This document shows, piece by piece, positions 3,947-40,374 of a stretch of DNA of 40,374 bases. The position numbers were made by a program, and so were the translations under genes. The DNA comes from a virus. The notes under the pieces were generated by a model that saw only the letters and a list, made by a program, of their open reading frames with translations, did not search any database and had not been told where the DNA came from. The stretch covers positions 1 to 40,374 of IMG/VR virus record IMGVR_UViG_3300045988_084041; one strand, given 5' to 3'. Each line of letters begins with the position of its first letter. Within the stretch, counting starts at the first letter, position 1.

Positions 3947-4633
3947 GTGCTATATCTGTCAAAAAAAGATTTATACGAACGTGTAGAAAGATTTAGAAGA
4001 TTAATAGGCATTAATGATTCTGCTTACCCTTTAGATATATTTGATTTATGTCAAAATAAACTGTCAAATATTGCAATAGGCAAAGTAAACTTTAAAACTA
4101 ATGATTTAAGAGGTATGGCATTTATATCTAACAACCTTCAACGCGAAAATCATGTAATTCTAGTAAATGCAAATAAAACACAAGCAGAAATAAATTATCA
4201 TGGTACACATGAACTTATGCATATAGCAATTCAAAATAATTCAGGTGTTCAAGCATTTAAGTGTTATGATAAAGTTAAACCAACACAAGATTTTTACACT
4301 GAATGGCAAGCTAATGAGGGAGCCGCAGAATTTTTAGTTCCTTATAAACTATTACTACCGCTTATAAAAGAGAATTACAATAAACTGCAAGAAGATTTTG
4401 GTACATACTATTTTTCTGAAAACTGTTCTCTTCTATTTGGAGTTTCGAGAGTGGTTATGCAAAATCGCCTAAATGCCTTAAGTTATGAAATAGAACAATA
4501 CTTAAATGGTACATCATTAGACAGTATAAGAATATTATCTAATTCGCAACAAAAGCGAGAAGGAATAAATACATTATCATTAAATCAGCTTGAAGATATT
4601 AGACTCATGCAATCGATTGAAAATTTTAAATAG
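3947..4633 (+). CDS. ImmA/IrrE-family zinc metallopeptidase
   Basis: HEXXH motif (THELMHIA). The position immediately after the XRE repressor is the canonical ImmR/ImmA pairing. GTG start abuts the repressor stop. Confidence 0.8.
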   Translation: MLYLSKKDLYERVERFRRLIGINDSAYPLDIFDLCQNKLSNIAIGKVNFKTNDLRGMAFISNNLQRENHVILVNANKTQAEINYHGTHELMHIAIQNNSGVQAFKCYDKVKPTQDFYTEWQANEGAAEFLVPYKLLLPLIKENYNKLQEDFGTYYFSENCSLLFGVSRVVMQNRLNALSYEIEQYLNGTSLDSIRILSNSQQKREGINTLSLNQLEDIRLMQSIENFK

Positions 4634-4711
4634 ACTGCATATTCCTAATTGAATTTATACTATAGAGATATTCTTTTATTTATACTATTCAAAAAGAAGG
4701 AAGTGATTATT

Positions 4712-5116
4712 ATGGACATCATTAAATATTACGGCAGTGATGAAACCAAAACAGAGTTTATCAATCACGACAGTGAGCCTTTAATGGCAGTAATTGCACA
4801 CGACCGCTCACACGCTGTTGTTTCATTGCTTGATGAGGGTTGTGAACATCACTTGTTGTTGGCAAAGGCTCTTGACAAATACAATATAGATGAATATTTC
4901 AGAATTATTTTTGATAACGAGGGTGCCGATTGGACCTTTGTATGCCCACCTAATTATAAAAATATAGCTAATAAAGAAAAACGTATAACGGAATTTTTTA
5001 ATGACGGTGTTGACGCTATAACCGAATTTCTGAAACAAATCGGTTATGACGTGCCTATTAACGTACCAAGACGTTATCGCAGACATATGGACTATTTGAA
5101 AAATTCAGATTATTAA
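4712..5116 (+). CDS. Hypothetical lysogeny-module protein (134 aa)
   Basis: Track ORF trimmed to the ATG at 4712, which has AGAAGGAAG about 8 nt upstream. No family recognised. Confidence 0.55.
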   Translation: MDIIKYYGSDETKTEFINHDSEPLMAVIAHDRSHAVVSLLDEGCEHHLLLAKALDKYNIDEYFRIIFDNEGADWTFVCPPNYKNIANKEKRITEFFNDGVDAITEFLKQIGYDVPINVPRRYRRHMDYLKNSDY

Positions 5117-5123
5117 AAAAATC

Positions 5124-5150
5124 CCCTCAACCGCTACCAACAGTTGAGGG
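5124..5150. terminator. GC-rich hairpin CCCTCAAC/GTTGAGGG; the U-tract is only in minus-strand orientation
   Basis: An 8-bp stem with an 11-nt loop. A-runs lie on both sides in plus orientation, so it is a better terminator for leftward transcription. Confidence 0.4.
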
Positions 5151-5309
5151 AAAAAGAATAAAGTGCATTTATACACAATATCCAAACCAATAATATTGTA
5201 TCATAAATGCACTCTGTTTTCAATATAAAAATTAGAGAAAAGGAGTGTTATTTTTGTGCCGTTTTTTAGAAAAACGTGTACTGCATAACACAAGAAAGGG
5301 AGATTTACG

Positions 5310-6788
5310 ATGAATGTAGCTATGTATTTACGAAAATCAAGAGCAGACGAAAACAATCCGCTTGAAACACTTGAACGTCACAAAGAAATTCTTCTTTCTT
5401 ATGCAAAGGACAATAATTTAACGGTCATTGACATATTTGAAGAAGTGATAAGCGGAGGAATGTTATACAACAGAACGGAAATGCTGAAACTACTTGACGC
5501 TATTCCCTCGCACATATATGATGCGGTATTATGTATTGACCTTGACCGTTTAGGGCGCGGAAGTGCCGCAGACAGTGAAAAAATCTTTGACGTTCTTAAA
5601 GAAAACGATGTAAAAATTATTACGCTCAAAAAAATATATGACCTCAACAACGAGTATGACGAAGATTACAGTGAATTTGAAATGTTTATGGCTCGAAAGG
5701 AGCTTAAATTCATCACTCGCAGAATGAACCGCGGACGTATCAAATCAATCAACGACGGTTGCTTTGTGTCGGGTGCTCCGTTTGGTTATCGAAATGCCGT
5801 AATAAATAAAAAGCACACGTTGGAAGTATATGAACCGGAGGCAAAATATGTTCGTATGATATTTGATATGTACGTAAATCAAAGTATGGGTATTACTTCA
5901 ATAAGCCGTCAGCTTGCAAATTTGGGTGTCTTGAGCAAGAAAAATACACCGCTCCACCCCACCACAATCGCCCGTATGCTCCGAAATCATACTTACATAG
6001 GTAAGATAGTGTGGAACAAATCAAAGTCTGTTAAAGGCAAAAATACGCAAGAAAAAACGAGTAAAGATGATTGGTTATATGTTCCCGGACTGCATGAGCC
6101 AATAATTGACGAGGACACGTTCAACAAAGCACAAGATATTATAAATCTGAAATACAAACCGCCTATGCGTACAGGCACGTTGCAAAATCCGTTTGCAGGG
6201 CTTTTAAAGTGTGCTAATTGCGGTCGGGCAATAGTTATCAATACTTCTAACGAAACCGTTGAAAAATACCGTCTTTGCTGTCGTACACTTGGTTGTAATA
6301 AGGCATCTGCATTGAGTATTGTAGAAGATAAAGTATTTGAAGTGCTTACAAAGGAATTTAAAGATATTGAATTGTCTTTGAAAAATATCCGTCAATCGCA
6401 TAATAAAGATAAACTTTCCTGCCTTGATACAATAGCCACTTTGGAAACAGAATTAAAAAAACTTGATAAACAACAACTCCGTCTGTATGACTTGCTCGAA
6501 CAGGAAGTCTATACAAAAGAACTTTTCCTTGAACGCAATAACGCAATTTCAGATAGAAGAAAAAAAATTAATGCCACGATAGCACAGGAACGTGAAAAAT
6601 TTAAACTTGTGGATACATCTTCCGTCGAAGAACGACTTCCCCTTTTGCGTGAACTTCTCACTAATTACCACTCTCTTTCAGCCGCCGAAAAAAATTCCAT
6701 TCTTAAAAATTTCGTAAAAAAAATTGAATATAAACGTGAAAAATCCGCTCCCAAGGGCGATATTTTCTTGAAAATCTATTATAAATAA
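5310..6788 (+). CDS. int: Large serine recombinase (phage integrase)
   Basis: N-terminal resolvase-type catalytic region (MNVAMYLRKSRADE...DRLGR), a recombinase domain, a Cys-rich zinc ribbon (CANCGRAIV...CCRTLGC) and a C-terminal coiled coil. Length 492 aa. Confidence 0.9.
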   Translation: MNVAMYLRKSRADENNPLETLERHKEILLSYAKDNNLTVIDIFEEVISGGMLYNRTEMLKLLDAIPSHIYDAVLCIDLDRLGRGSAADSEKIFDVLKENDVKIITLKKIYDLNNEYDEDYSEFEMFMARKELKFITRRMNRGRIKSINDGCFVSGAPFGYRNAVINKKHTLEVYEPEAKYVRMIFDMYVNQSMGITSISRQLANLGVLSKKNTPLHPTTIARMLRNHTYIGKIVWNKSKSVKGKNTQEKTSKDDWLYVPGLHEPIIDEDTFNKAQDIINLKYKPPMRTGTLQNPFAGLLKCANCGRAIVINTSNETVEKYRLCCRTLGCNKASALSIVEDKVFEVLTKEFKDIELSLKNIRQSHNKDKLSCLDTIATLETELKKLDKQQLRLYDLLEQEVYTKELFLERNNAISDRRKKINATIAQEREKFKLVDTSSVEERLPLLRELLTNYHSLSAAEKNSILKNFVKKIEYKREKSAPKGDIFLKIYYK

Positions 6789-6853
6789 CTTTTTACCCAC
6801 CTTATGTATCTTGTTGCCATAGCTGTATGGATAACAACAAGATACCCAACCAA

Positions 6854-6884
6854 AAAGAACATAAGCATTTTGCCTATGTTCTTT
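6854..6884. terminator. Hairpin AAAGAACATA/TATGTTCTTT, roughly bidirectional terminator between int and the GHKL-like gene
   Basis: A 10-bp stem with an 11-nt loop. It is followed by a T-run in minus orientation and by TCTTAATT in plus orientation. Confidence 0.55.
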
Positions 6885-7040
6885 CTTAATTATATAAGGT
6901 TTTTAATATATTTTTTAGAAGGATATTCAATTTATTTTAATATTCAAATCTTTTAGCCGGATATGTTTTTAATAAATCCATATCTCGACCTGAAATTGTA
7001 CAATCTTCTTTAGGGGTTTTCCAATAGTAATCGAAATATT

Positions 7041-7928
7041 CTAATAATCTTTTTGAGTTTCTGTTCTAAAATCACCTCTCAATGCTGAACATATAAACTC
7101 AGAATCTTTCTTTACTAGCGGTAGTCTTTCGTGCCAATTTTTATATACAGTACATGGTATGCCCAATCCAGTATCTAAAAAAACAAAACGAATACTATCA
7201 TCAGTTTCTTCAGCAAATAAATACCACGAATTTGCTGAAGAAGATTGCATTGTTTTTTTAGTATAGGCATGATTCTTTGTGTTGTCCATTAATTCTACTA
7301 ATATATTGTATAATGATATTGTTTTAATACGGTCAATATTACATATCGTCTGAACCATTTCACATGCCTCCCTCGCAATGTCAGGAGTATTTTTTGTTCC
7401 ATGCCTAATTTGAATCTTATTGCTACGAGGTATTATGTGAGTTCTATTTGATTTTACATAGTCCAAAAAACCCGATTCGGTTAAAATGCGATGAACACTT
7501 TTGTCTTCAGGAAATGTACCTTTGAAACTGTATTTTTTTAATATGTTACTATGTAAATCATTCATTAATGCTATCAAATACATCAATGCATCCGTATCAA
7601 TTTTTTGAATATCACTTAAATCCAAGAAGAAAATAACTTTTTTATTCGTTCTTTTAGTTCTATTCATTTGATACAGAATATAATTAAAAAAACCTATGGT
7701 TTCCTCAGTATTATCCATAATACTGAAATTTTGTGGGGCTTGGCATTTTATAGTAATCGAATGAACATCATGAATAATTTGATTGTCACATTCTATTTCT
7801 CTTTCCAACATATATCTTTCTGAAGTTCGACGTCTATTCTTGTTATATTTAGTGATAAACTTCAACTTTTTCTTACATCTATTATCATGCCAAATTTTAT
7901 TTTTTATTTTCCTTTTTATAATATTCAC
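7041..7928 (-). CDS. STAS-like + GHKL (Bergerat-fold) ATPase-like protein, basic N-terminus; accessory gene
   Basis: N-box-like LVELMDNTKNHA and G1-box-like FLDTGLGIP. Upstream STAS/anti-sigma-antagonist-like stretch VIFFLDLSDIQKIDTDALMYLIALMNDL. Very AT-rich (15/60 GC at 7561-7620). The start codon is uncertain: the GTG at 7928 has GGGGG abutting it. No G2 box before the TAG stop. Confidence 0.6.
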   Translation of the reverse strand: MNIIKRKIKNKIWHDNRCKKKLKFITKYNKNRRRTSERYMLEREIECDNQIIHDVHSITIKCQAPQNFSIMDNTEETIGFFNYILYQMNRTKRTNKKVIFFLDLSDIQKIDTDALMYLIALMNDLHSNILKKYSFKGTFPEDKSVHRILTESGFLDYVKSNRTHIIPRSNKIQIRHGTKNTPDIAREACEMVQTICNIDRIKTISLYNILVELMDNTKNHAYTKKTMQSSSANSWYLFAEETDDSIRFVFLDTGLGIPCTVYKNWHERLPLVKKDSEFICSALRGDFRTETQKDY

Positions 7929-7945
7929 CCCCGAATCACATTATG

Positions 7946-7974
7946 ATTTTAACACAAAATATAACTCTTGTCCA
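7946..7974 (-). promoter_or_regulatory. Promoter for the GHKL-like gene
   Basis: On the minus strand: TGGACA (7974-7969), a 17-nt spacer, then TGtTAAAAT (extended -10, 7951-7946). Confidence 0.5.
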
Positions 7975-8052
7975 TATATACATAATATTTTTATATTTTC
8001 ATTTTTAAGAGTTCAACCAATTATAATCATAAATTGTAGCTTTTACCTCATA

Positions 8053-8844
8053 TTATTTACTATACAGGCCACAACGGTATTCACGCACAATAGTTCGTAG
8101 GTCCTTATAAGATAGTCCCAATCTCCCTTGCTCGTCACCGACCAATGCGCCGTAATCTTGCGCGGCTTGTACTGCCGTTCTTGCCCACGATGGCATGTTG
8201 CCATCGTTATAGTCATACACCATTGTACTTTGCACTACGGCTTTTAACTCCTTGTTTTCTATTTGTAGTGCTGAAATAGCCGCCTCCTGTTTCTCTATTA
8301 GATTTTTTAATTCATTGTACTGCTCCATAGTTAATTCCTCACTTCCTGTTAATCGTCTTTTGAAATTATCCCATAGCTCCGGCTGACGTACGAACGGTTC
8401 GGGACACTTTTTATCCCACACATCATAGTGTCGTAATACGTTTTCTACCGGCACACCGTATTTATTCATCAAATACCGTGTTAATTTAATTGTCTGTTCC
8501 ACAATCCCGTCACGAATATAGTATTTACCGTCCGCACCGATACGGCTGCACATTTCAATCGAAATACTGTTCATATTCCTACAATACGGGTGTTTGTAAA
8601 TTTTTGTACCACCGACAGCCCACGCCGCCCATTTATCGGGTACAGATTGATATATTCCGTCATCACCGATAAAATAATGTGCAGACGCACCACGATTTGC
8701 ACCGCTGAAATAATTGCAGTTGTTCAATGCCGTATCGCCGTTATTTGACGTAAAATGAATGACGATATATTTAATATCGCCATTCCTATATGTATAACAG
8801 TTGGACGGGTGACACTGCGGACCCTGTTTGATTTGAATATCCAT
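8053..8844 (-). CDS. Endolysin, N-acetylmuramoyl-L-alanine amidase (Amidase_2/PGRP type) with C-terminal coiled-coil/binding region
   Basis: IVIHFTSNNGDTALNNCNYFSG...ASAHYFIGDDG is typical of Amidase_2. The gene is directly downstream of the holin. Confidence 0.85.
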   Translation of the reverse strand: MDIQIKQGPQCHPSNCYTYRNGDIKYIVIHFTSNNGDTALNNCNYFSGANRGASAHYFIGDDGIYQSVPDKWAAWAVGGTKIYKHPYCRNMNSISIEMCSRIGADGKYYIRDGIVEQTIKLTRYLMNKYGVPVENVLRHYDVWDKKCPEPFVRQPELWDNFKRRLTGSEELTMEQYNELKNLIEKQEAAISALQIENKELKAVVQSTMVYDYNDGNMPSWARTAVQAAQDYGALVGDEQGRLGLSYKDLRTIVREYRCGLYSK

Positions 8845-8846
8845 AC

Positions 8847-9254
8847 TTATTCCTCCGTATCATCTTCGCCGCGCAGTTGTAGCAATATATCTTTCAACTT
8901 TTGTGGCATTCGCGGGTAAATTACCGCCACATTTTCCAACACGCTTATACCCTCATTTGCTATGTAAAACATAATGACAATTTCACGAATTGCGACGTTA
9001 TCGCCTGTAATCTGTTGCAGGACGTTTGATAACGCTACTATAATTAATATAGTAATCTTTTTGAGCAGTCCTTTAAAACCAATCTCACTCGACATTGTTT
9101 TTGTGTAGATTGCCTTGATAATACCTGTCAGATAATCCAGCACCATTATCACCAACAGCGCCCATAAAATACTATCCCATTGACCGAATATTGCGGCGAA
9201 AAAACCGCCTACAATTCCAATAACCGTACTTGTCCAATTAAAAATCTTATCCAT
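8847..9254 (-). CDS. Holin (phage_holin_4_1 / toxin-secretion holin type)
   Basis: Three hydrophobic segments and the conserved LVIMVLDYLTGIIKA motif. Its position upstream of the amidase fits. Confidence 0.8.
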   Translation of the reverse strand: MDKIFNWTSTVIGIVGGFFAAIFGQWDSILWALLVIMVLDYLTGIIKAIYTKTMSSEIGFKGLLKKITILIIVALSNVLQQITGDNVAIREIVIMFYIANEGISVLENVAVIYPRMPQKLKDILLQLRGEDDTEE

Positions 9255-9257
9255 AAA

Positions 9258-9380
9258 TTAACCCTCCATAATCTCCTGTTTCTCAGCTTCTGTAATAAAA
9301 CCTGCTTTGACAAATACATCAAGCTGTTTCTTGGTATATAGCCCCTTTTTGTAATATCTTTTTATCAATGCCTTATTCAT
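9258..9380 (-). CDS. xkdX: XkdX-family small protein (40 aa)
   Basis: Below the track cutoff. My translation: MNKALIKRYYKKGLYTKKQLDVFVKAGFITEAEKQEIMEG, matching the XkdX pattern (YY.kGl.t..qv..fV.kg.IT..ey..It). The ATG overlaps the upstream stop, and the stop is 3 nt before the holin ATG. Confidence 0.7.
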   Translation of the reverse strand: MNKALIKRYYKKGLYTKKQLDVFVKAGFITEAEKQEIMEG

Positions 9381-9750
9381 TGCTGACACCTGCCTTTAAC
9401 TCTGCAATCTGTAGTAACAGCATTGCGTTGATTTCATCCTGTGTCAGCTCACCGTTCATAACAGACTGAACATATTGTTTCATATCCGACATACTGTCAA
9501 ATGTTTTTGACTGTATCTGTGACAGCTGTTCTGATGTCGGCTGTTCCAACGTTACGTCTGTATGCTGAATTTTTGCAATTTCTGTGTCCATATCGAAATT
9601 GTCGTCAGTTTCGGCGAATTTGTTATTTACAACACTGCGTTTTATACGCAATATATCCCTGTCGGTATGTATTCCGTACACTGTGCCGTCAATTTCAACA
9701 CCGTGTTCATAGAAATACGCTGTTCCGTTTTTCATATAAAATTTGTACAT
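9373..9750 (-). CDS. Hypothetical protein between tail fibre and XkdX (XkdW-position), 125 aa
   Basis: Track ORF trimmed to the ATG at 9750, which has AAGGAGG 6 nt upstream. Confidence 0.6.
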   Translation of the reverse strand: MYKFYMKNGTAYFYEHGVEIDGTVYGIHTDRDILRIKRSVVNNKFAETDDNFDMDTEIAKIQHTDVTLEQPTSEQLSQIQSKTFDSMSDMKQYVQSVMNGELTQDEINAMLLLQIAELKAGVSNE

Positions 9751-9761
9751 ATTCGACCTCC

Positions 9762-12467
9762 TTAACTCCATGCAACCGTATTACCTTCAGCCACACAACC
9801 TTCGTCCAGTTGACCTATTGAGCTTGCACTTGTGACATTGCCCGTTACAACCGACGAAGCGTTAGCTTCGATAACGTACAGATTTTCTAATATGTTTGTT
9901 GCCGCAGATAATAGAATCACATTATCACGACAAAATGCCTTGTTTGCATAAAGGATATTATATCCCTTAACTTCTGTACTATCTGTTGTTATAATAGACA
10001 GATTTTTAATATAATTGTTTGCAAATGTTGCTTCTACACCCAAATCAAAAGCGCAGTCACCTTCTTTTACCTTTAATCCAAAGAATGTATTGTCATTGCA
10101 GATACTTCTCAATTTGACTGCTATACACTCGTTCAAATCTAACGAAATAAATACATTATTGGCTGTATTACCTGCCAGTGTAATATTACCGATATCACTA
10201 CTATTGAAAATATTATGATTACAAAGACTGTTGTTACCGCTGAAATATATTTCCCCTTGTGGTATGGTGTTATCTTCAAATACATTGTTTATAAATATCG
10301 ACGCTGATACAGACATTAAATATCCCGAATCTGAATTATCGGTAGTCCATATATTTGTAAATTTATTGTTATCTACAAAAACTTTTGTAAATTTCATACA
10401 TGCACCTATATTGGTTTTTGTTTTTAAGCACCAACCGTCAATAACATTGTTTGTAAATTTTGAACCACTGCACATAATGATATTACCAACGGTACTATCA
10501 TCTTGATTTACATCATATACTTCGCCTAATACACAATTATCAACGATTGCGTTACTATTGCCAAATAAAATCATAGGATTAACAGATGTTTGAGTACAGG
10601 TGGTGTTATCCTCTTGGAAATTTATATTTTTTAACTTCGCCATAATACCCAAGAAGAATATAACTTGACGTGCGGCAGGATTGGTATTTTTAAACGTAAT
10701 TGAACTACAGTAAGTACCGTCTAATGTAACTCGTATACCTACATTTAATATAGCATTATAATGACCGAACCCCGAAACAAGCCCACTGTCCTGTGTGTTT
10801 TCGTTAGTCAGTACACAATCACCCATGATATATACTACCGTGCCTCGTATGGCTCTCGACAACGCCGCCTGTATTTTTAATTCGTCGTGGTCGCCGTCAC
10901 ACACGACAAATATTTGATTTTTTGAAATGTCTGTAACTGTTTTATCAATTTCGGTGATTTTTGTTGTATTGGCAGTAATTTTTGATGTATTCGTGTTAAT
11001 ATCATCACGCAATACCGCCACACATTCATCATCATAACAAACGGCCGACTGTATTAATGTTTTCTGTTCACACGCATTTCCCGTCGGGTCACCGTTTGTA
11101 TAAAAGTTATCCGATACAATTCGGAATGAAATTGATTTAATTTCTTTGGTTACAGGGATTTCAATTTTAAATTTCGTTGTTTTATACGTTTCTGATGTGC
11201 CGTTTATCGTGATTGTTTTATCACCGGTATCAGTTGTTGTGTAATATGACTGTCCGAATGTTTCTGTTGTTGTATCAGTGTATGTAATCAATACGTCTGT
11301 TTCACCTATATTCAAACCGCCACTGTCGCAACCGTCCACAGCTATATGACGTGACGCCACATTGAATGTCAATTCTAATGTGGTTTCCGTTTTCGGTTTA
11401 CGGCGAAAATTATCAACAACAAAATTGTGATACAAATACGTTCCGTTTTCAAACGAACCCGAATATGACAAATACTGTACACCGCTGTCGTCAGTGACTA
11501 ATGTGTTGTCACTGTTGACGTATTTAGATAAATCATAAAACAGGTTATCCGTTGTCAGTTCTGTATTTATATCTGATATTTTTGCTTTCAACTCGTTGTC
11601 CGCCGCCTGTCGGTCCGAAATTTCAGTACTGATTTTTTCATTCAGTGAATGCTCTGCACCCTCTCTGTCCGAAATTTCAGTTGTCAGTTTTGTTGAAATT
11701 TCATTGACCGCCTCTAAAAACGAATTTTTATTATTGGTTTTTAGTCCGTTCAAATTGTTGATACCTGTAAACGTTTGCGCCCTGTTGTACATTGTTGTTA
11801 CTGTTGCGGTGTTATATCCTACCGTCATTAATGCGATAGTTCCCTCTTCCGGTGACGTTTCAACATCTTCAACCGTCATTGTCAGCGTACCTGTTTCGGG
11901 TGAATAATATATACAAATATATTTGTCGCCGTCCTCACCTTTTCCGCAACCGAACATTGCGGATAAATCCGCCGCCTGTATTGAATAACCGTCTAACAGG
12001 ATTTTTGATTTAACCGTGTTACCCGCTACTGTAACCGTGCCTGTACTGTGTCCTGCGTCGATACTGACAGCCATATCCGCCGCAGTCAATGAATATGTAA
12101 CAGTATGCTTTGTCGTTTCATCAGTGCCGTACAACTCTGTTTTGTCAGCCTTTTTGCTGTCTGCTGTCTGTCTTTCGGTGATTTCACTGTCAATATTACG
12201 TTGCAGTTCATTATCCGCCGCCTGTCGTATTGTTACTTCGTTGCTTATGCGACTGCTTAACGAACTATCCGCACTTTCCCTCGCTTTGGTTTCGGCTGTG
12301 ATTTTGTCTGCCAAACCTACATCAGCGTTGGTGCGTTGCGTGATTTCTGTGTCCAATTTGTCGGACAGTGTGTTGTGGTCGGTTTGAATTGCCGTGAAAT
12401 TATCGCGAACAATCTTCCACCATTTCGATAAAAATGTTTTACCGTCAAAATTAAAATTTAATTTCAT
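9762..12467 (-). CDS. Tail fibre / receptor-binding protein with coiled-coil repeats and C-terminal parallel beta-helix (depolymerase-like)
   Basis: Six copies of the E(I/V)(T/S)xRxxAD motif are present. The C-terminal third has an Asn-ladder periodicity (NNVIDG, NNKFTN, NNVFEDN, NHNIFNS, NNVFISL, NDNTFFG, NNYIKNL, RDNVILL). The gene lies downstream of Tal. Confidence 0.75.
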   Translation of the reverse strand: MKLNFNFDGKTFLSKWWKIVRDNFTAIQTDHNTLSDKLDTEITQRTNADVGLADKITAETKARESADSSLSSRISNEVTIRQAADNELQRNIDSEITERQTADSKKADKTELYGTDETTKHTVTYSLTAADMAVSIDAGHSTGTVTVAGNTVKSKILLDGYSIQAADLSAMFGCGKGEDGDKYICIYYSPETGTLTMTVEDVETSPEEGTIALMTVGYNTATVTTMYNRAQTFTGINNLNGLKTNNKNSFLEAVNEISTKLTTEISDREGAEHSLNEKISTEISDRQAADNELKAKISDINTELTTDNLFYDLSKYVNSDNTLVTDDSGVQYLSYSGSFENGTYLYHNFVVDNFRRKPKTETTLELTFNVASRHIAVDGCDSGGLNIGETDVLITYTDTTTETFGQSYYTTTDTGDKTITINGTSETYKTTKFKIEIPVTKEIKSISFRIVSDNFYTNGDPTGNACEQKTLIQSAVCYDDECVAVLRDDINTNTSKITANTTKITEIDKTVTDISKNQIFVVCDGDHDELKIQAALSRAIRGTVVYIMGDCVLTNENTQDSGLVSGFGHYNAILNVGIRVTLDGTYCSSITFKNTNPAARQVIFFLGIMAKLKNINFQEDNTTCTQTSVNPMILFGNSNAIVDNCVLGEVYDVNQDDSTVGNIIMCSGSKFTNNVIDGWCLKTKTNIGACMKFTKVFVDNNKFTNIWTTDNSDSGYLMSVSASIFINNVFEDNTIPQGEIYFSGNNSLCNHNIFNSSDIGNITLAGNTANNVFISLDLNECIAVKLRSICNDNTFFGLKVKEGDCAFDLGVEATFANNYIKNLSIITTDSTEVKGYNILYANKAFCRDNVILLSAATNILENLYVIEANASSVVTGNVTSASSIGQLDEGCVAEGNTVAWS

Positions 12468-12515
12468 TTTATCAGTCCTTTCTAATCGTAATTGATTGGG
12501 ATTTCATTAAAAAAA

Positions 12516-12530
12516 CACGCCGTAAGCGTG
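12516..12530 (-). terminator. Short GC hairpin CACGC/GCGTG followed by T7 (minus strand)
   Basis: Read directly. The stem is only 5 bp, so this is weak. Confidence 0.35.
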
Positions 12531-12579
12531 CTATGGTGGTATTCGTCTGTACATTATGTCACCTCATTTTTGGTACGAA

Positions 12580-12610
12580 AAAAGCACTCACCGTTTTGGC
12601 AAGTGCCTTT
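12580..12610 (-). terminator. Imperfect hairpin (GCACT/AGTGC core) followed by T6 (minus strand)
   Basis: Read directly. The large loop makes it weak. It lies downstream of the lipoprotein-like gene. Confidence 0.35.
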
Positions 12611-12654
12611 CTTGATAAAATCATATTTTGTTGTTATTTGCAAGATTTAATCGT

Positions 12655-13209
12655 TTATTTCAACAACGGCTGTATCTCGTCGACAAATTGGTCGTACGGG
12701 ATAACTTCATCTGAATCCATAACCGTTGTTTTGCCCGTATAAATCACATTATCACCGCTTACGGCTTTAAATGTTTTTGTATCGTAGTCGTAGTCAAATT
12801 TATATCCTGCGTCTTGAATTTTAGTCGCCACAAAATTAATCAACGCATAGTATACACCGTCTTTTTGAGTAATGAAAGCAGAGTCGTTTATATACTCTGT
12901 CGGTGGAGTGTATTTACTTGTAACTGCCATATTATCATATTCTTTCTTTTCTGATATTGTGGCGGTGCTTGTTTGGTTATCATACTGTACGTCTTTTCCT
13001 AATGCTTCACTCACTGCCCTTATCGGCAAGTATGTTGTATCATTGTATAGGAAATTATCGGCTTGTACTTCTTTACCGTCTACAACAACTTTGATTGTAT
13101 TCGGTAAAACATTTATATTCTGCCATACGTCAGCCGCGTATGCTCCCGCACACGATATAACACCCATAACGAGCATACCGCATATAAAACTTTTCATATT
13201 CCCTTTCAT
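12655..13209 (-). CDS. Secreted protein or lipoprotein with copper-amine-oxidase-N-like (stalk) domain; moron in the tail cluster
   Basis: Signal peptide MKGNMKSFICGMLVMGVISCAGAYAADV, with a possible lipobox VISC. IKVVVDGKEVQADNFLYNDTTYLPIRAVSEALGKDVQYD matches the Cu_amine_oxidN1 pattern. AAGGAGG lies 8 nt upstream of the ATG at 13209. Confidence 0.7.
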   Translation of the reverse strand: MKGNMKSFICGMLVMGVISCAGAYAADVWQNINVLPNTIKVVVDGKEVQADNFLYNDTTYLPIRAVSEALGKDVQYDNQTSTATISEKKEYDNMAVTSKYTPPTEYINDSAFITQKDGVYYALINFVATKIQDAGYKFDYDYDTKTFKAVSGDNVIYTGKTTVMDSDEVIPYDQFVDEIQPLLK

Positions 13210-13236
13210 AAAAAATACCTCCTTTGTAATACCTAA

Positions 13237-13265
13237 ATTGTACCACAAAGGAAGATTTTTGTAAA
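13237..13265 (-). promoter_or_regulatory. Near-consensus sigma-A-type promoter for the lipoprotein-like gene
   Basis: On the minus strand: TTTACA (13265-13260), a 17-nt spacer, then TGgTACAAT (extended -10, 13242-13237). It starts 6 nt after the Tal stop. Confidence 0.55.
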
Positions 13266-13270
13266 TATTT

Positions 13271-14986
13271 TTATGAAATATCTGTTATAAGTCCGCCCGA
13301 AACTGTTACAGTTTTTCCGTCTGCCGTTTGAAATGTTCCGCTTGCTCCTTGTTCAAACTTCCACTTATTTTTGCCGACTGTCGTGCCATTTCCCGAACTA
13401 AGTATGTCTAATCCATACGTTCTTAACAAAATTCCCGATATAGCGTTGTATATTTGAAAAATACACTTATTATTGTAGTATAAATTAAAATCAGTATATC
13501 TCATATCGTTGCTACTCGGTGCATTACACCACAAACCGTACCTGTTGCCGTCTGCATCGTAACTTTGAATACCGTTTTTGTCTATAACGGTCCTTGCTTC
13601 TGTGTCCGTACCCGTTGCAAATATACCCGTTATCGTTACATTACCGTTCTCGTCCATTTCGATTGTTTTCTTTTTAAGCTGATTAAACAGCTCAAAAACG
13701 AATTTACCGTCCATATTGCCGAGATTTATACGTCGTCTGCCCTTGTCGTCCTCTATGTACAGTAAATCACCGTCTAACAGCAGTTTTTTGTTATCTGATT
13801 CAACGGGGTTTTGGGTACTGTTCACCGTACCGTGAAAATAGCTTGTTTTCAGTTTATTCGCTCTGCCTGAATTTTTCTGAATAGTTTTAATCAGCTTACC
13901 CATATACCACGCGTGGTAATACGCATTAGCCAATGTAGGCTGACCGATTGTAACTGACGGTTGTTTTGCGCTGTATGGATAATACGTCATTGATACAATT
14001 CGCTGTTTATGTTCGATATTATCTTCAAAAACGTGTACTGTATCACCCAACGCAATTTTATAAAAATCACCGTACTCGGCAAGTTTACTCAAATCAACCA
14101 CGTCACCCGTGATTGTCAGTTGAGGGCGGTCAAGTCTGAACTCGTTACCCTCACCCTTTAAGTCCCACTCACCAAACGCCTTTAGCTTTTCGGGGTCATC
14201 GTAATCGCTGTAATCTCGGTACGCCTCACGAATACCGTACTTCTCGATACCCTCTTTACTGTCAATGTACGGCTTACCGCCGTTTACAGATGAAATCGTC
14301 AAATCGTCCTTGCCGTACATATACAGTCTTGTCGTCAGCTCTTGTGTGTTTCTCTCGACTGAAAGACTTGTCATATTCTTTTTTATTGACATTCTCACGC
14401 CGTTATCCTTACCGATACGCTCCACAACCGCAAATCGGTAATTATCATAGTATATTTCGCCCCTGCCGTAAGCCTCTATGACGTTTTGTATAACATCATA
14501 TGTATTTATCTTATCGGTCGGGTAAAAGTCGATTTTAACGCCGTCTGCGCCTATTCTCGTCATACCCATTTCCTTAAGTTCACTGTCGGGTATAAGCTCA
14601 AACTTTGTATCGGCTATCGCAAGTTTTATAACGTCGTATGGGTCAACACCAATCGTTGATTTTGTCACGTCCGTATCGTTGCCGATTGTCGGCAAGTGAT
14701 GGTGAAGTGCGTCATCATAGAATATTCGGTTAGCTTTCACCGTCATAATTCTTGAACCGCTGTAATCTCGCTTTACAAGTGTAATGCGGTATGCTTGTCC
14801 TTCAACCGATACTATACGATTTTCTTTTATAAGCTCCGCTTTTTCGTCTTTCATAGGGTACTTAAAAGAAACTGTGTGCGTTTCCTGCAATCCCTCGAAC
14901 ACCGCCACTTCGTACGCCTTATTCAGATACGCAAGGCAACCGCCTGTGAAGTCTGTTTCGTTCCATTCGTGTAATTTAAAAGCCAT
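13271..14986 (-). CDS. Tail-associated lysin/Tal-type baseplate protein (prophage endopeptidase tail family)
   Basis: Large protein immediately after Dit. The N-terminus is typical of siphovirus Tal (MAFKLHEWNETDF...). Start set at the ATG at 14986, which has GGAGTGA 5 nt upstream. Confidence 0.7.
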   Translation of the reverse strand: MAFKLHEWNETDFTGGCLAYLNKAYEVAVFEGLQETHTVSFKYPMKDEKAELIKENRIVSVEGQAYRITLVKRDYSGSRIMTVKANRIFYDDALHHHLPTIGNDTDVTKSTIGVDPYDVIKLAIADTKFELIPDSELKEMGMTRIGADGVKIDFYPTDKINTYDVIQNVIEAYGRGEIYYDNYRFAVVERIGKDNGVRMSIKKNMTSLSVERNTQELTTRLYMYGKDDLTISSVNGGKPYIDSKEGIEKYGIREAYRDYSDYDDPEKLKAFGEWDLKGEGNEFRLDRPQLTITGDVVDLSKLAEYGDFYKIALGDTVHVFEDNIEHKQRIVSMTYYPYSAKQPSVTIGQPTLANAYYHAWYMGKLIKTIQKNSGRANKLKTSYFHGTVNSTQNPVESDNKKLLLDGDLLYIEDDKGRRRINLGNMDGKFVFELFNQLKKKTIEMDENGNVTITGIFATGTDTEARTVIDKNGIQSYDADGNRYGLWCNAPSSNDMRYTDFNLYYNNKCIFQIYNAISGILLRTYGLDILSSGNGTTVGKNKWKFEQGASGTFQTADGKTVTVSGGLITDIS

Positions 14987-25732: not shown

Positions 25733-25924
25733 ATGGACAAATGTTATTCTAAATGTTTTAAAGGTGTCTGTCCTCAAACCAATAAAGATGAACAAATATG
25801 TATTAATTTTGTCGAATTTCCCAATTCACACATAGTTGGTCATAAAGCATTAGGGTTTAAGTGTTTAGTACACAATAAGTGTCTTAATCCTAATGAATGC
25901 CCTATTTTCCTAAAATACAAGTAG
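25733..25924 (+). CDS. Small Cys-rich protein (63 aa, 7 Cys), opposite strand to the structural operon
   Basis: GAGGAGGTG RBS 7 nt upstream of the ATG at 25733. Translation: MDKCYSKCFKGVCPQTNKDEQICINFVEFPNSHIVGHKALGFKCLVHNKCLNPNECPIFLKYK. Flanked by terminators. Confidence 0.65.
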   Translation: MDKCYSKCFKGVCPQTNKDEQICINFVEFPNSHIVGHKALGFKCLVHNKCLNPNECPIFLKYK

Positions 25925-25927
25925 CAA

Positions 25928-25953
25928 AAAAGCACGTCCGCAAACGTGCTTTT
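25928..25953. terminator. Bidirectional terminator AAAAGCACGT/ACGTGCTTTT
   Basis: A perfect 10-bp stem with a 6-nt loop and flanking A/T runs. Confidence 0.7.
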
Positions 25954-26067
25954 AATCTCCATCAAGATATGCGTATTTATCTGACATTGATTTTTTCTTT
26001 TCTTCTGTCAAGCAGTCAATCATTCTCTGATTGGCTCTTTCGTTTTCCTCATCTGTTCCGCTTTTTA

Positions 26068-26307
26068 TCAATACCACATTACTAAGCATTCAGATGTCAG
26101 CTCATTCCTTTCTGCCATATTTATTAACTTACGCTTTGCCATGTGCATATGAGTCTTACAGTAAGCATATTCTGTTGGCAACACATCATGTGTTAATTCT
26201 TCACTAGTCATATTTACGAACATATTTATACCTATTGTACAATCCTCAGGATAAGCTACACAAGAAATAGTTTCATTATCTTTTTTTATGTTTTTCAATC
26301 GTATCAT
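26068..26307 (-). CDS. Small hypothetical protein (79 aa) overlapping the MuF 3' end; candidate immunity-type partner
   Basis: ORF track entry. AT-rich, with a 32-nt overlap with the MuF gene. No family recognised. Confidence 0.55.
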   Translation of the reverse strand: MIRLKNIKKDNETISCVAYPEDCTIGINMFVNMTSEELTHDVLPTEYAYCKTHMHMAKRKLINMAERNELTSECLVMWY

Positions 26308-27790
26308 AATATTTTCTTGCCTCCCTCGAATAATTATATTCTTTAGATGTCATTATATGTGCCTCACTTTGAGGTATCCCTAAATCTACAAGTTTGTTTT
26401 CCATAATTTCATGTTTAAGTAATATCAAATCATGTTGTTGAATGTTTTTACCATCTATTAATCTTTGCCATGATTGAGCCATTTCATAACTTGCGTCAAA
26501 ATATTCTAATTTTCCTCTACCTAAATCATGTTTCTCCATAAATATAAAGTTTTTTATTCTTTGTATTTCATTTGTAGAGTATCCTGTATTAGATGCTATT
26601 CTTGCAACATCAGTTGTCATATGCCTTACAGATTCATAATACCTAACAGCGTGTTCTTCTGCCCTTTTACTGTACGGATTTAAAGCACCACTTATCGCTC
26701 CCGCTTTTATTATACCACGTTTTTCACTATTTGCAACATATTTTAACGCATTTTTCTGTTCGTCCGACAAACTGTTTTTCCATTCGTCAAACGTCATACC
26801 ACCGTCAACCTTATAATTTTCGCCAGTGAGCGGATCGCGTGCAATACGACTTGTCAAATTCACGTCTGCCATAATCGTAACGCACCGACAACGTGGGTGT
26901 ATCGGTGGGAAGTTTTCGCCCTCAACGGCTTTATCCGTATCAAACACGCTACCGTCAAGACTTCCGCACCTGTCACACGTCAATTCAGACAATGCCGCCA
27001 CAAATTGATATTTCTTTATGCCGATTTCCTCATATGCCATTCTCTGCCCTTGGTTCATAAAATGTGCCGTTTCACTTCGCACAAGTGTTTCGGCTGATGT
27101 TCGTATTCCGCCTGGTGCAGTATCTTTGACGTAATCAATCAGCTTGTCAGTCATACGGCTTACGCTGTGACCGCTGATTATACCGTCCTCAATCGTCTGT
27201 CCGACTGCCTGTATAAATCTGTCGTTATGTATCCACACTCTCTCGCTGTAGTTGTGACCGTGCCACGGCTCTCTTAACACCATATTAACCGCTCTTTGCG
27301 GAACGAGTGAAAAATCAATACCGCAGTTTAAACCTTGTGCAGTATCAAATATATTCGTGTAATATGCCGTCTTTACTGCACTGTCATACAGTTTCTTTTG
27401 CTCCTTTATAGCCTCGTTTGCAACGTGCCTAAAGTAAATATATACATTACGTTTCAGCCCCTCTAATCGGCTAATTCTCGCACCGTATGCCTGTGCATTT
27501 ATGCGGTTTAGAATTTCCTTTTTGACTGTCTTGTCGTCTGTTTCGTCGTACAGTTCAAGAAGTTCTTCATACTGCTTGTCGCTGTCGGCTATGCTCATTA
27601 ATCGGCGTGCCTCTTTTTCGGGTATATCAGTCGAAATATAGGCTTTAAACGTTTTCTCAATATCATTGTTTACATTCTTGATTGCTCGCTCATATGCCTT
27701 AATTACACCGTCCTTAACGCTGTCCGCTTGCGATTGTAAATATGTTTCAACTTCAACGGCACGTTTTACCCAATATGCCTTACTCTTCAT
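26276..27790 (-). CDS. Minor head protein, MuF/SPP1 gp7 family, with about 150-aa AT-rich C-terminal extension
   Basis: MuF core: NYSERVWIHNDRF...RSETAHFMNQGQ...CDRCGSLDGSVF...PPIHPRCRCVTI. Residues from about 355 to 504 lie beyond the core and are encoded by markedly AT-richer DNA. Confidence 0.85.
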   Translation of the reverse strand: MKSKAYWVKRAVEVETYLQSQADSVKDGVIKAYERAIKNVNNDIEKTFKAYISTDIPEKEARRLMSIADSDKQYEELLELYDETDDKTVKKEILNRINAQAYGARISRLEGLKRNVYIYFRHVANEAIKEQKKLYDSAVKTAYYTNIFDTAQGLNCGIDFSLVPQRAVNMVLREPWHGHNYSERVWIHNDRFIQAVGQTIEDGIISGHSVSRMTDKLIDYVKDTAPGGIRTSAETLVRSETAHFMNQGQRMAYEEIGIKKYQFVAALSELTCDRCGSLDGSVFDTDKAVEGENFPPIHPRCRCVTIMADVNLTSRIARDPLTGENYKVDGGMTFDEWKNSLSDEQKNALKYVANSEKRGIIKAGAISGALNPYSKRAEEHAVRYYESVRHMTTDVARIASNTGYSTNEIQRIKNFIFMEKHDLGRGKLEYFDASYEMAQSWQRLIDGKNIQQHDLILLKHEIMENKLVDLGIPQSEAHIMTSKEYNYSREARKYYDTIEKHKKR

Positions 27791-39912: not shown

Positions 39913-40374
39913 TTACTTTATATCTTTAAAATCTTCTGCCGCTTTCTCTGCCGAGTTCCATTCGGGACGTTTGTCCTCCGAACGCACAAGCGTCGGCTTT
40001 CCCTGCGGTTTTATTACATATTCTCCGAGCAGTTCGTTAAATCTTGCTCTGCCTAAAAGTGCCTCTATTTTCGTGATGTTGAGTATTTCCTTTTTGTAAA
40101 TACTCTTTTCATCATAGCCGGCTTTAATTAATACATCGGCGATTTTGCTGTCGTCCTCCGCATATTTGCGGTTACTTCTTCCCTCAACCACTTTAAATCC
40201 CGGATACTTAACGCCGTTATTAAGTGCCTGTTCCAAAGCATAGTCCTTTACGAGTTTCGACCACTTCGCAAGGTTTTCCGCTTGGTCTATTACCTCCGCA
40301 ATTTCATCTTCGGTAAGTTCCAAAGGCGGTTTGAAAACCATTGCCGCAAGCCTGTTTTTCTCCTCCGCATACGC
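39913..40374 (-). CDS. C-terminal part of the wrap-around Cas4-like DUF2800-type nuclease (continues from 1..757)
   Basis: The track ORF 39913..40341 starts at an internal Met. The frame stays open to the window end and joins 1..757 through the 55-bp overlap. Confidence 0.8.
   Translation of the reverse strand, partial: AYAEEKNRLAAMVFKPPLELTEDEIAEVIDQAENLAKWSKLVKDYALEQALNNGVKYPGFKVVEGRSNRKYAEDDSKIADVLIKAGYDEKSIYKKEILNITKIEALLGRARFNELLGEYVIKPQGKPTLVRSEDKRPEWNSAEKAAEDFKDIK
40320..40374. repeat. Terminal overlap, exact copy of 1..55
   Basis: Same 55-mer as bases 1-55. Confidence 0.95.

Follow-up and report, generated by a model that had tools for sequence, protein, structure and literature searches.

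The window analysed here is a 40,374-bp stretch of viral DNA (IMG/VR record IMGVR_UViG_3300045988_084041), and its minus strand carries, at positions 7041 to 7928, an open reading frame (ORF) that we call K'. K' is a 3'-truncated gene for a kinase resembling CapK and VapK, as judged from the ORF list, its identity to the longer protein P0062, a match to phrog_3364, the family motifs, a structure model and fold matches to GHKL proteins. With a probability of roughly 0.85, the ORF is what a very recent deletion has left, in inactive form, of the gene that opens a three-gene prophage cargo operon, K-S-T, in which K encodes the kinase, S a small STAS-like protein and T a predicted membrane protein. 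In this phage genome, 2,416 bp were lost by recombination between two direct repeats of 12 bp, and this deletion accounts for both the absence of a G2 box from K' and the absence of its partner. The original prediction, made from the sequence alone, had described the ORF as a stand-alone STAS-like and GHKL-ATPase-like gene with its own promoter and terminator, situated in a cargo (moron) slot and possibly serving as a single-gene, degenerate switch. The slot was correctly recognized, K' being located between the lysis genes and the phage attachment site (attP) with its integrase, and the fusion of a STAS-like with a GHKL domain is a real architecture here. The stand-alone switch was not upheld, as the gene ends one codon past the deletion junction and S, T and most of a following DUF4238 gene have been deleted.

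K' encodes 295 amino acids (aa) from a GTG start. Its G+C content of 0.245-0.315, where the adjacent lysis genes have about 0.40, agrees with the earlier description of an AT-rich minus-strand ORF. In the product, a basic N-terminal helix precedes a STAS-like alpha/beta domain, which is followed by the N and G1 boxes of a GHKL domain; the Lys/Arg-rich N-terminus and the two boxes had been noted before, and the boxes fall on invariant columns of the family. The N box (LVELMDNTKNHA / LVELMDNTKNHAY) corresponds to a helix of the E..N...HA type with its Mg-binding Asn, in which the E, N, H and A are invariant in 53 homologues. In the G1 box, FLDTGLGIP (DxGxG), the D and the first G are likewise invariant in the 53 homologues and the second G is conserved in at least 90%. 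The protein ends at residue 295, just before the sequence NRSKGLP, and is without the G2 box or ATP lid, the G3 box and the C-terminal strands.

Comparison with longer relatives located the break precisely. K' is identical to the 363-aa protein P0062 over 294 of 294 residues, after which it reads a tyrosine and a stop codon. Nearly all of its homologues (n=58) are 335-390 aa long, and the closest, a protein of 360 aa that is 99% identical, continues with 69 C-terminal residues that start with NRSKGLPQ, a G2-like box. Identity to the contig of this 360-aa relative breaks at window position 7046/7047, and the K' stop follows one codon on. The reported lack of a G2 box therefore holds for the window copy, but full-length relatives carry a G2-like RGKGLP and a G3 GT. 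Similarly, phrog_3364 (function unknown) matches K' at E 4.6e-23 over profile positions 8-221 of 304 only, whereas it matches full-length K at E 7.5e-31 and reaches position 292 of 304. A split gene with its C-terminus elsewhere in the window was ruled out by tblastn, which detected no sequence in the window coding for the 69-residue K C-terminus. The window ORF itself gave no match in Pfam, NCBIfam or PADLOC. The HATPase_c domain expected from the motifs was not recovered by Pfam in this ORF, and full-length P0062 reaches E 0.16 and 12.9 bits against a gathering cut-off of 26.4.

The undeleted arrangement is found in sibling prophage loci with an identical amidase, in which the amidase is followed by K, S, T and DUF4238 and then by the host junction (10 of 10). 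In these siblings K has 363 aa (or 324 or 333 as called), S 106 aa (DUF4325), T 177 aa and the DUF4238 protein 415 aa. Positions 7805-1 of prophage locus L058 correspond to window 7039-14844 and positions 10447-10203 to window 6814-7058, the two matches overlapping in the window. The overlap is a 12-bp perfect direct repeat, ACTCAAAAAGAT, or about 20 bp with imperfect matches; L058 has two copies, at 7787 and 10203, and the window has the one remaining copy at the deletion junction (7047-7058, minus strand). Cutting L058 7799-10214, the 2,416 bp between the copies, recreates the window exactly (631 of 631 bases). The deletion took away K from codon 295 to 363, S and T entirely, and roughly 375 codons from the start of DUF4238; for K this means the loss of the ATP lid with the G2 box, the G3 box, the last helix and two long strands. 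What remains of DUF4238 at its 3' end, the last ~39 codons and stop, occupies 6937-7058 on the minus strand in a frame different from that of K'; it is 100% identical to L058 10203-10324 and matches the tail of the 415-aa protein, which closes with SKRLLEYFDYYWKTPKEDCTISGRDMDLLKTYPAKRFEY before the stop. The DUF4238 protein is recognized by Pfam and not by PADLOC. Because K' is identical to P0062 at all 294 residues compared, the deletion is recent.

The truncated form is also uncommon. The 295-aa product was found on 4 contigs (5 by look-up of the encoding contigs), all 40.4 kb or shorter, while full-length K is present on 422 contigs and in 712 index blocks, of which 122 have a longest contig of 20-50 kb. 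With so few truncated against so many full-length contigs, a ratio of about 1%, the deletion is a rare variant rather than a property of the free phage. A mis-join across the repeat during assembly would likewise place the junction within a repeat, but the perfect repeat of 12 bp (~20 bp imperfect) is far under the 55-bp k-mer overlap of the assembler, and the exact 295-aa product occurs on the 4-5 separate contigs from different data sets. An assembly artefact was therefore rejected as scarcely credible. A break at attP or a swap of the integrase module was also rejected, since the attP core lies at 6814-6826, and the 220 bp that separate it from the break belong to the 3' end of DUF4238 and its terminator. 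Decay of this cargo region was observed a second time, in L067 (9075-10988), where an insertion sequence element (rve + HTH_Tnp_1) has shortened DUF4238 to 224 aa and K is called at 333 aa. This is an independent decay of the same region.

The transcription signals that had been ascribed to the gene were each confirmed in part. Upstream of K', a promoter-like site, TGGACA-17-(TG)TAAAAT (7946-7974, minus strand), scored 10 of 12 plus TG in a consensus scan and, read from 7974 to 7946, is the best promoter-like match in 6700-8200. The site is thus present, but with 9 promoter-like sites this AT-rich stretch has no more of them than its shuffles (10.0 +/- 3.1). Downstream on the same strand, at about 6854-6884, is an intrinsic-terminator-like hairpin with a U5 run directly after it; its RNA fold is strong (-19.2 kcal/mol, z -6.68), with 0 of 200 shuffles as stable. 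The DUF4238 stop is at 6937 and the hairpin lies beyond it, next to the attP core. It is the predicted terminator of the DUF4238 or cargo transcript in the undeleted phage, and not one belonging to K' itself.

These observations bear on whether the ORF could be a complete, stand-alone STAS-GHKL fusion with a naturally degenerate ATP site, acting as a lone sensor or switch in the lysogen, either in phage exclusion or on host sigma factors. Such a gene would fit the promoter-like site and the downstream hairpin, the STAS-like and GHKL architecture, and the recurrence of the truncated form on 4-5 contigs. It is nonetheless highly improbable, given the complete identity to a 363-aa protein up to a stop one codon past a repeat-mediated junction, the assignment of the hairpin to DUF4238, and the rarity of the truncated form at about 1% of the full-length one. 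Moreover, the full-length relatives always have G2 and G3 boxes and an S partner, and no phage- or module-associated sigma or anti-sigma gene is near the homologues inspected.

With the deleted boxes missing, K' is predicted to be unable to bind or hydrolyse ATP normally, and as it has no partner either, we infer that it most likely does nothing. Against its being an inactive remnant, the promoter-like site is intact and there is no further decay, features of the sequence alone that would be compatible with a residual role. One such role would be that of a selected dominant-negative or decoy protein, which with its STAS-like domain and partial kinase domain would bind S-type proteins or the activating ligand of intact K-S-T operons in co-resident prophages, blunting their abortive response to the advantage of this phage. 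The intact promoter-like site, the frame preserved up to the junction and the occurrence of the variant on several phage-length contigs would be consistent with this, and a replicating phage could profit from losing a self-targeting Abi module. However, the sequence has not changed since the deletion and hence shows no sign that the new form is under selection. In addition, the variant is rare, the loss of the last helix and two core Bergerat strands likely destabilises the protein, and the deletion end points were set by a chance 12-bp repeat, which together make a selected decoy improbable. The K' remnant shows that prophage cargo genes can disappear via short-repeat deletions, and an oddity at the motif level, such as the lack of a G2 box or of a partner, may simply signal truncation.

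Full-length K belongs to a large family, with 4,755 clusters (50% identity) at E<=1e-3 and 3,351 at E<=1e-10. The alignment of 53 full-length homologues has conserved the N box E..N...HA, the G1 box DTGLGIP, a segment aLxGxFRTxT, the G2-like RGKGLP and the G3 GT. An AlphaFold2 model built on the 360-aa relative (predicted local distance difference test, pLDDT, 86.9; predicted TM-score, pTM, 0.80) contains a long basic helix (residues 8-49), an alpha/beta domain (58-174) and a C-terminal domain (179-353), of which strands 309-324 and 333-353 are among the parts lost in K'. When the full-length model was compared with the PDB by Foldseek, the best 50 matches listed were all GHKL proteins at modest E-values, including TopoVI-B (7e-4), SpoIIAB (1.4e-3, probability 1.00, target TM-score 0.67), GyrB and BCK/PDK, and matches in BFVD were phage or viral HATPase proteins. 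The K profile found no match among PDB sequences. The Bergerat/GHKL fold claimed for the C-terminal domain is supported by these structure searches with the predicted full-length model.

The N-terminal domain is less clear-cut. In the model the alpha/beta domain has the topology beta-beta-alpha-beta-alpha-beta-alpha, as in STAS. The isolated N-terminal domain of the window protein (model pLDDT 85.4) yielded no significant Foldseek match (best E 0.057); about 11 of the best 50 matches were STAS domains (SLC26/SulP, and SpoIIAA at TM-scores of 0.44-0.46), mixed with other alpha/beta folds. The STAS-like segment proposed at ~58-177 is plausible from the modelled topology and from a colinear hhalign match to VapK, given below, although the structure search with the isolated domain returned nothing significant. 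A phospho-acceptor Ser or Thr at the N-terminus of helix alpha-2 is not conserved in K, where the position is occupied by V, I, P, G, T or A, and the STAS-like domain of K is therefore not a conserved substrate.

The partners of K were characterized in 49 loci from genomes and IMG/VR, 46 of which have DNA downstream of K. An ORF of 100-146 aa, S, comes directly after K and often overlaps it in all 46. S is typically ~106 aa long and was assigned to Pfam DUF4325 ("STAS-like domain") in 43 of the 43 proteins scanned. Its Ser61 is invariant in the same 43 proteins and is found at the start of helix alpha-2, within the motif ...LDGxYGYxxSFLEEAFGGL. Of the 441 positions of phrog_5816, S matches the 100 at the C-terminus, which suggests that fused K-S proteins exist. 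A natural fusion of this type is P0071 (469 aa), in which the K stop is lost and the frame reads on into S. Of the 46 loci, 41 have a third ORF, T, after S on the same strand, and it encodes 134-206 aa (~180). The T proteins are related, with 24 of 41 matching the copy in locus L001 by phmmer, and very divergent, with a mean identity of 19%. Two N-terminal transmembrane (TM) segments are predicted in 29 of the 41 and one in 9, and the remainder of the protein is helical. Profile searches of Pfam and the PDB with T produced noise only (coiled coils, and SLATT_1 for 2 of 37 members at E 0.03).

What follows T differs between loci: DUF4238 in this phage lineage, Abi_alpha (PDC-S47) in the myovirus-like relative L001, where it is the only PADLOC match, and unrelated genes elsewhere. 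K-S-T was found in prophage cargo slots, a small resolvase-associated island, a Tn916-like element, and a defence island that also holds restriction-modification genes, a reverse transcriptase, Cap15/CD-NTase (CBASS) and an AAA+S8 protease pair. Most of its hosts are prophages of gut Clostridia. As the original prediction had anticipated, the homologues thus have neighbourhoods in prophages and defence islands and not in sigma-factor operons. Its suggestion that the gene manipulates host sigma-factor signalling was not borne out, as nothing links the gene to sigma factors. No sigma-factor, anti-sigma or PP2C genes were found among the K neighbours in L001, L058-L067 and L068-L070, and the sole Sigma70-type match near homologues comes from a UPF0122 gene of the host, which lies by ffh in the integrase-side loci.

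Several loci illustrate how the operon is carried. L001, a myovirus-like prophage (Baseplate_J, sheath initiator) in which K-S-T is followed by Abi_alpha, is unrelated to the window apart from one shared segment with holin, amidase and K (window 7039-9272 and L001 8657-10880, 92% DNA identity). The lysis genes and K-S-T appear to move together between phage types, with the gene after T being swapped. In L068 (6341-10566), a small resolvase and K-S-T are located between a full spo0A and a 75-aa Spo0A_C fragment, which suggests that the cassette inserted at or near spo0A with a target duplication. In a Francisella prophage (PMC7924643, phage KIRK table), the stretch from repressor to integrase encodes a hypothetical protein of 293 aa and, after it, a DUF4325 protein of 112 aa, and this pair may be a Gammaproteobacterial example of the kinase-STAS pairing.

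The original prediction did not recognize a named family in K', and such families were described in 2026 as HTH-STAS-GHKL CapK and STAS-GHKL VapK, both with STAS substrates (PMC13373217). CapK (HTH-STAS-GHKL) has single-stranded DNA (ssDNA) as its activator and phosphorylates the repressor CapS (STAS-winged HTH, wHTH), and CapK-CapS pairs are located upstream of immune operons (Chambers et al., EMBO J 2026, PMC13373217). VapKSC, which protects against a phage, combines the kinase VapK (STAS-GHKL) with a STAS antitoxin of ~116 aa, VapS, and a PIN toxin, VapC; VapK is predicted to phosphorylate VapS, and the phospho-mimic VapS S48E no longer binds or neutralises VapC (PMC13373217). CapK and VapK contact ssDNA via an aromatic residue, W68 and F54, respectively (PMC13373217). 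In hhalign, the K profile aligned colinearly with Escherichia VapK, the sequence of which was taken from the authors' AlphaFold 3 file, across 224 columns that extend from STAS helix alpha-2 to the G3 box (probability 73.7%, E 2.9e-5). Among PDB entries, the S profile matched the crystallised VapS, 9z7o_A, best (E 0.005), and this VapS fragment is itself a DUF4325 protein in Pfam (E 2.2e-15). Judged from these profile comparisons, intact K-S-T is a variant of the CapK/VapK kind in which a predicted membrane protein replaces the nuclease.

By analogy with these systems, intact K-S-T probably acts in phage exclusion. The earlier guess of such a role is a reasonable one for the intact operon, but the window copy is an inactive remnant. 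Following the model of VapKSC, S would hold the membrane protein T inactive until an infection cue activates K. K would then phosphorylate S on its invariant Ser61, and T, once set free, would damage the membrane, with the result that infection is aborted or superinfecting phages are excluded, to the benefit of the lysogen. All of these steps we infer by analogy, and we give the whole chain an even chance of being correct.

A number of observations weigh against this model, together with the fact that every link in it comes from the comparison with VapKSC. The likeness between K and VapK is modest in profile terms, at a probability of ~74%. HMMER places the phospho-serine of VapS one residue before the invariant Ser61 of S, and in hhalign F54 of VapK aligns with a variable, non-aromatic column of K. 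T has no PIN match in Pfam or the PDB and no recognisable toxin domain, and it could serve as an anchor or sensor instead of acting as the effector. Finally, PADLOC-DB v2 returned no meaningful match for K', full-length K, S or T. As the aromatic residue of VapK and CapK is not conserved in K, the trigger may differ, and given its basic N-terminal helix the sensor of K would differ from one that detects ssDNA.

The VapKSC-like model ranks above the single-gene switch and the decoy discussed above, and also above transcriptional control by K and S. In the latter case, intact K and S would form a controller of the CapK/CapS type for the neighbouring DUF4238 or Abi_alpha gene, with T as an accessory membrane sensor. 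The position of CapK-CapS upstream of immune operons (PMC13373217) is in keeping with this proposal, and K-S-T precedes DUF4238 in one phage lineage and Abi_alpha (PDC-S47) in another. However, S, at ~106 aa, is without the wHTH DNA-binding domain that defines CapS, which makes a repressor role unlikely, and K is without the HTH of CapK. T is conserved with K and S while the next gene varies or is absent, hence the conserved unit is K-S-T, and we consider a transcriptional controller unlikely.

Returning to the VapKSC-like model, we propose tentatively, and at somewhat less than even odds, that K-S-T is a distinct and widespread phosphorylation-gated system of abortive infection or superinfection exclusion. 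In such a system, carried mainly as prophage cargo in gut Clostridia, a VapK-like kinase with a sensor unlike the ssDNA sensing of CapK and VapK would free a two-TM effector from a DUF4325 antitoxin. K-S-T is conserved and abundant in prophages and defence islands of gut bacteria, without a model in PADLOC-DB v2. It would extend the kinase-substrate logic of CapK and VapK from a nuclease toxin to a membrane effector. If this is true, it represents a new class of effector, and possibly a new trigger, for phosphorylation-controlled bacterial immunity, and one route by which these temperate phages protect their lysogens.

The phage that carries K' is represented completely. The window is a complete 40,374-bp metagenome contig with a 55-bp exact direct repeat at its ends (1-55 and 40320-40374), from which we conclude that the assembly is circular and the phage genome complete; a DUF2800 gene split by the window end (39913-40341) is continuous in a permuted record. 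The window encodes a temperate siphovirus-like phage with replication, packaging, head and tail genes, then holin, amidase and K'. The lysis cassette upstream of K' (8053-9254, minus strand) consists of the amidase (8053-8844; Pfam Amidase_2) and the holin (8847-9254; Phage_holin_4_1). Beyond K', on the opposite strand, are a large serine integrase, an ImmA/repressor and an antirepressor. The integrase (5310-6788, plus strand) was identified by Pfam Resolvase, Recombinase and Zn_ribbon_recom domains and adjoins host genes in prophage loci L002-L007. The same phage also occurs in integrated form on long contigs. The attP core, TTGCCATAGCTGT (6814-6826, plus strand), is the crossover region of this integrase and consists of the 13 bp common to both types of junction: homology to the window stops at 6826 in the integrase-side junctions (L002-L007) and at 6814 in the lysis-side junctions (L058 and others). 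No annotated relative turned up when window 4600-9300 was searched against the GenBank 'phages' set.

The host target of the integrase is apparently a membrane-protein ORF with faint matches to the ZIP family (L002 11495-11848; L058 10305-10892). Integration breaks this ORF in two, leaving 117 aa on the integrase side and 195 aa on the lysis side, and TTGCCATAGC is present twice in tandem within the host core sequence. Fragments 95-96% identical to the Phage_Mu_F-type head gene of the window (25922-27448) are located at ~12549-14075 in L003, L004 and L006, just beyond the integrase-side junction; on several host contigs these fragments look like a decayed earlier or tandem prophage at the same att site. 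In L059, L061, L062 and L073, a DUF4046 gene and an ORF of 383 aa come after DUF4238 in place of the ZIP-like, SpoU and DprA host genes, an arrangement that indicates a second integration context or an adjacent element.

Among described proteins and clusters, phrog_3364 and phrog_5816 match K and S, but both are unannotated clusters without functional information. SpoIIAB resembles K in its GHKL domain (1th8_A, 1l0o_A and 1tid_C, probability 1.00, target TM-scores 0.61-0.67), and SpoIIAA and RsbV resemble S as STAS-like partners with a serine at the N-terminus of alpha-2. Unlike SpoIIAB and RsbW, K carries its own STAS-like domain, and the association of SpoIIAB-SpoIIAA and RsbW-RsbV with sigma factors and PP2C proteins is absent here; K-S-T is cargo of mobile elements rather than a host regulatory operon. 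CapK-CapS is closer to K-S in that the gene for a STAS-GHKL (SpoIIAB-like) kinase is followed by one for a STAS-domain substrate, often with defence genes next to it. CapK-CapS differs from K-S in the HTH of CapK and the wHTH of CapS, both absent here, and in the membrane protein T that follows S. VapKSC differs from K-S-T in its third gene, a PIN nuclease instead of a ~180-aa two-TM protein, and in its kinase, as VapK is without the extra ~50-residue basic N-terminal helix of K and has the ssDNA-contacting F54. Compared with VapKSC, the window has only the first 294 codons of K remaining, and the VapS-like gene is deleted. Intact K-S-T and VapKSC have the same gene order, with a STAS-GHKL kinase, a STAS protein of ~110 aa and a third protein; S and VapS are both DUF4325 proteins with a conserved serine at the start of STAS helix alpha-2, and both operons are found near other defence genes.

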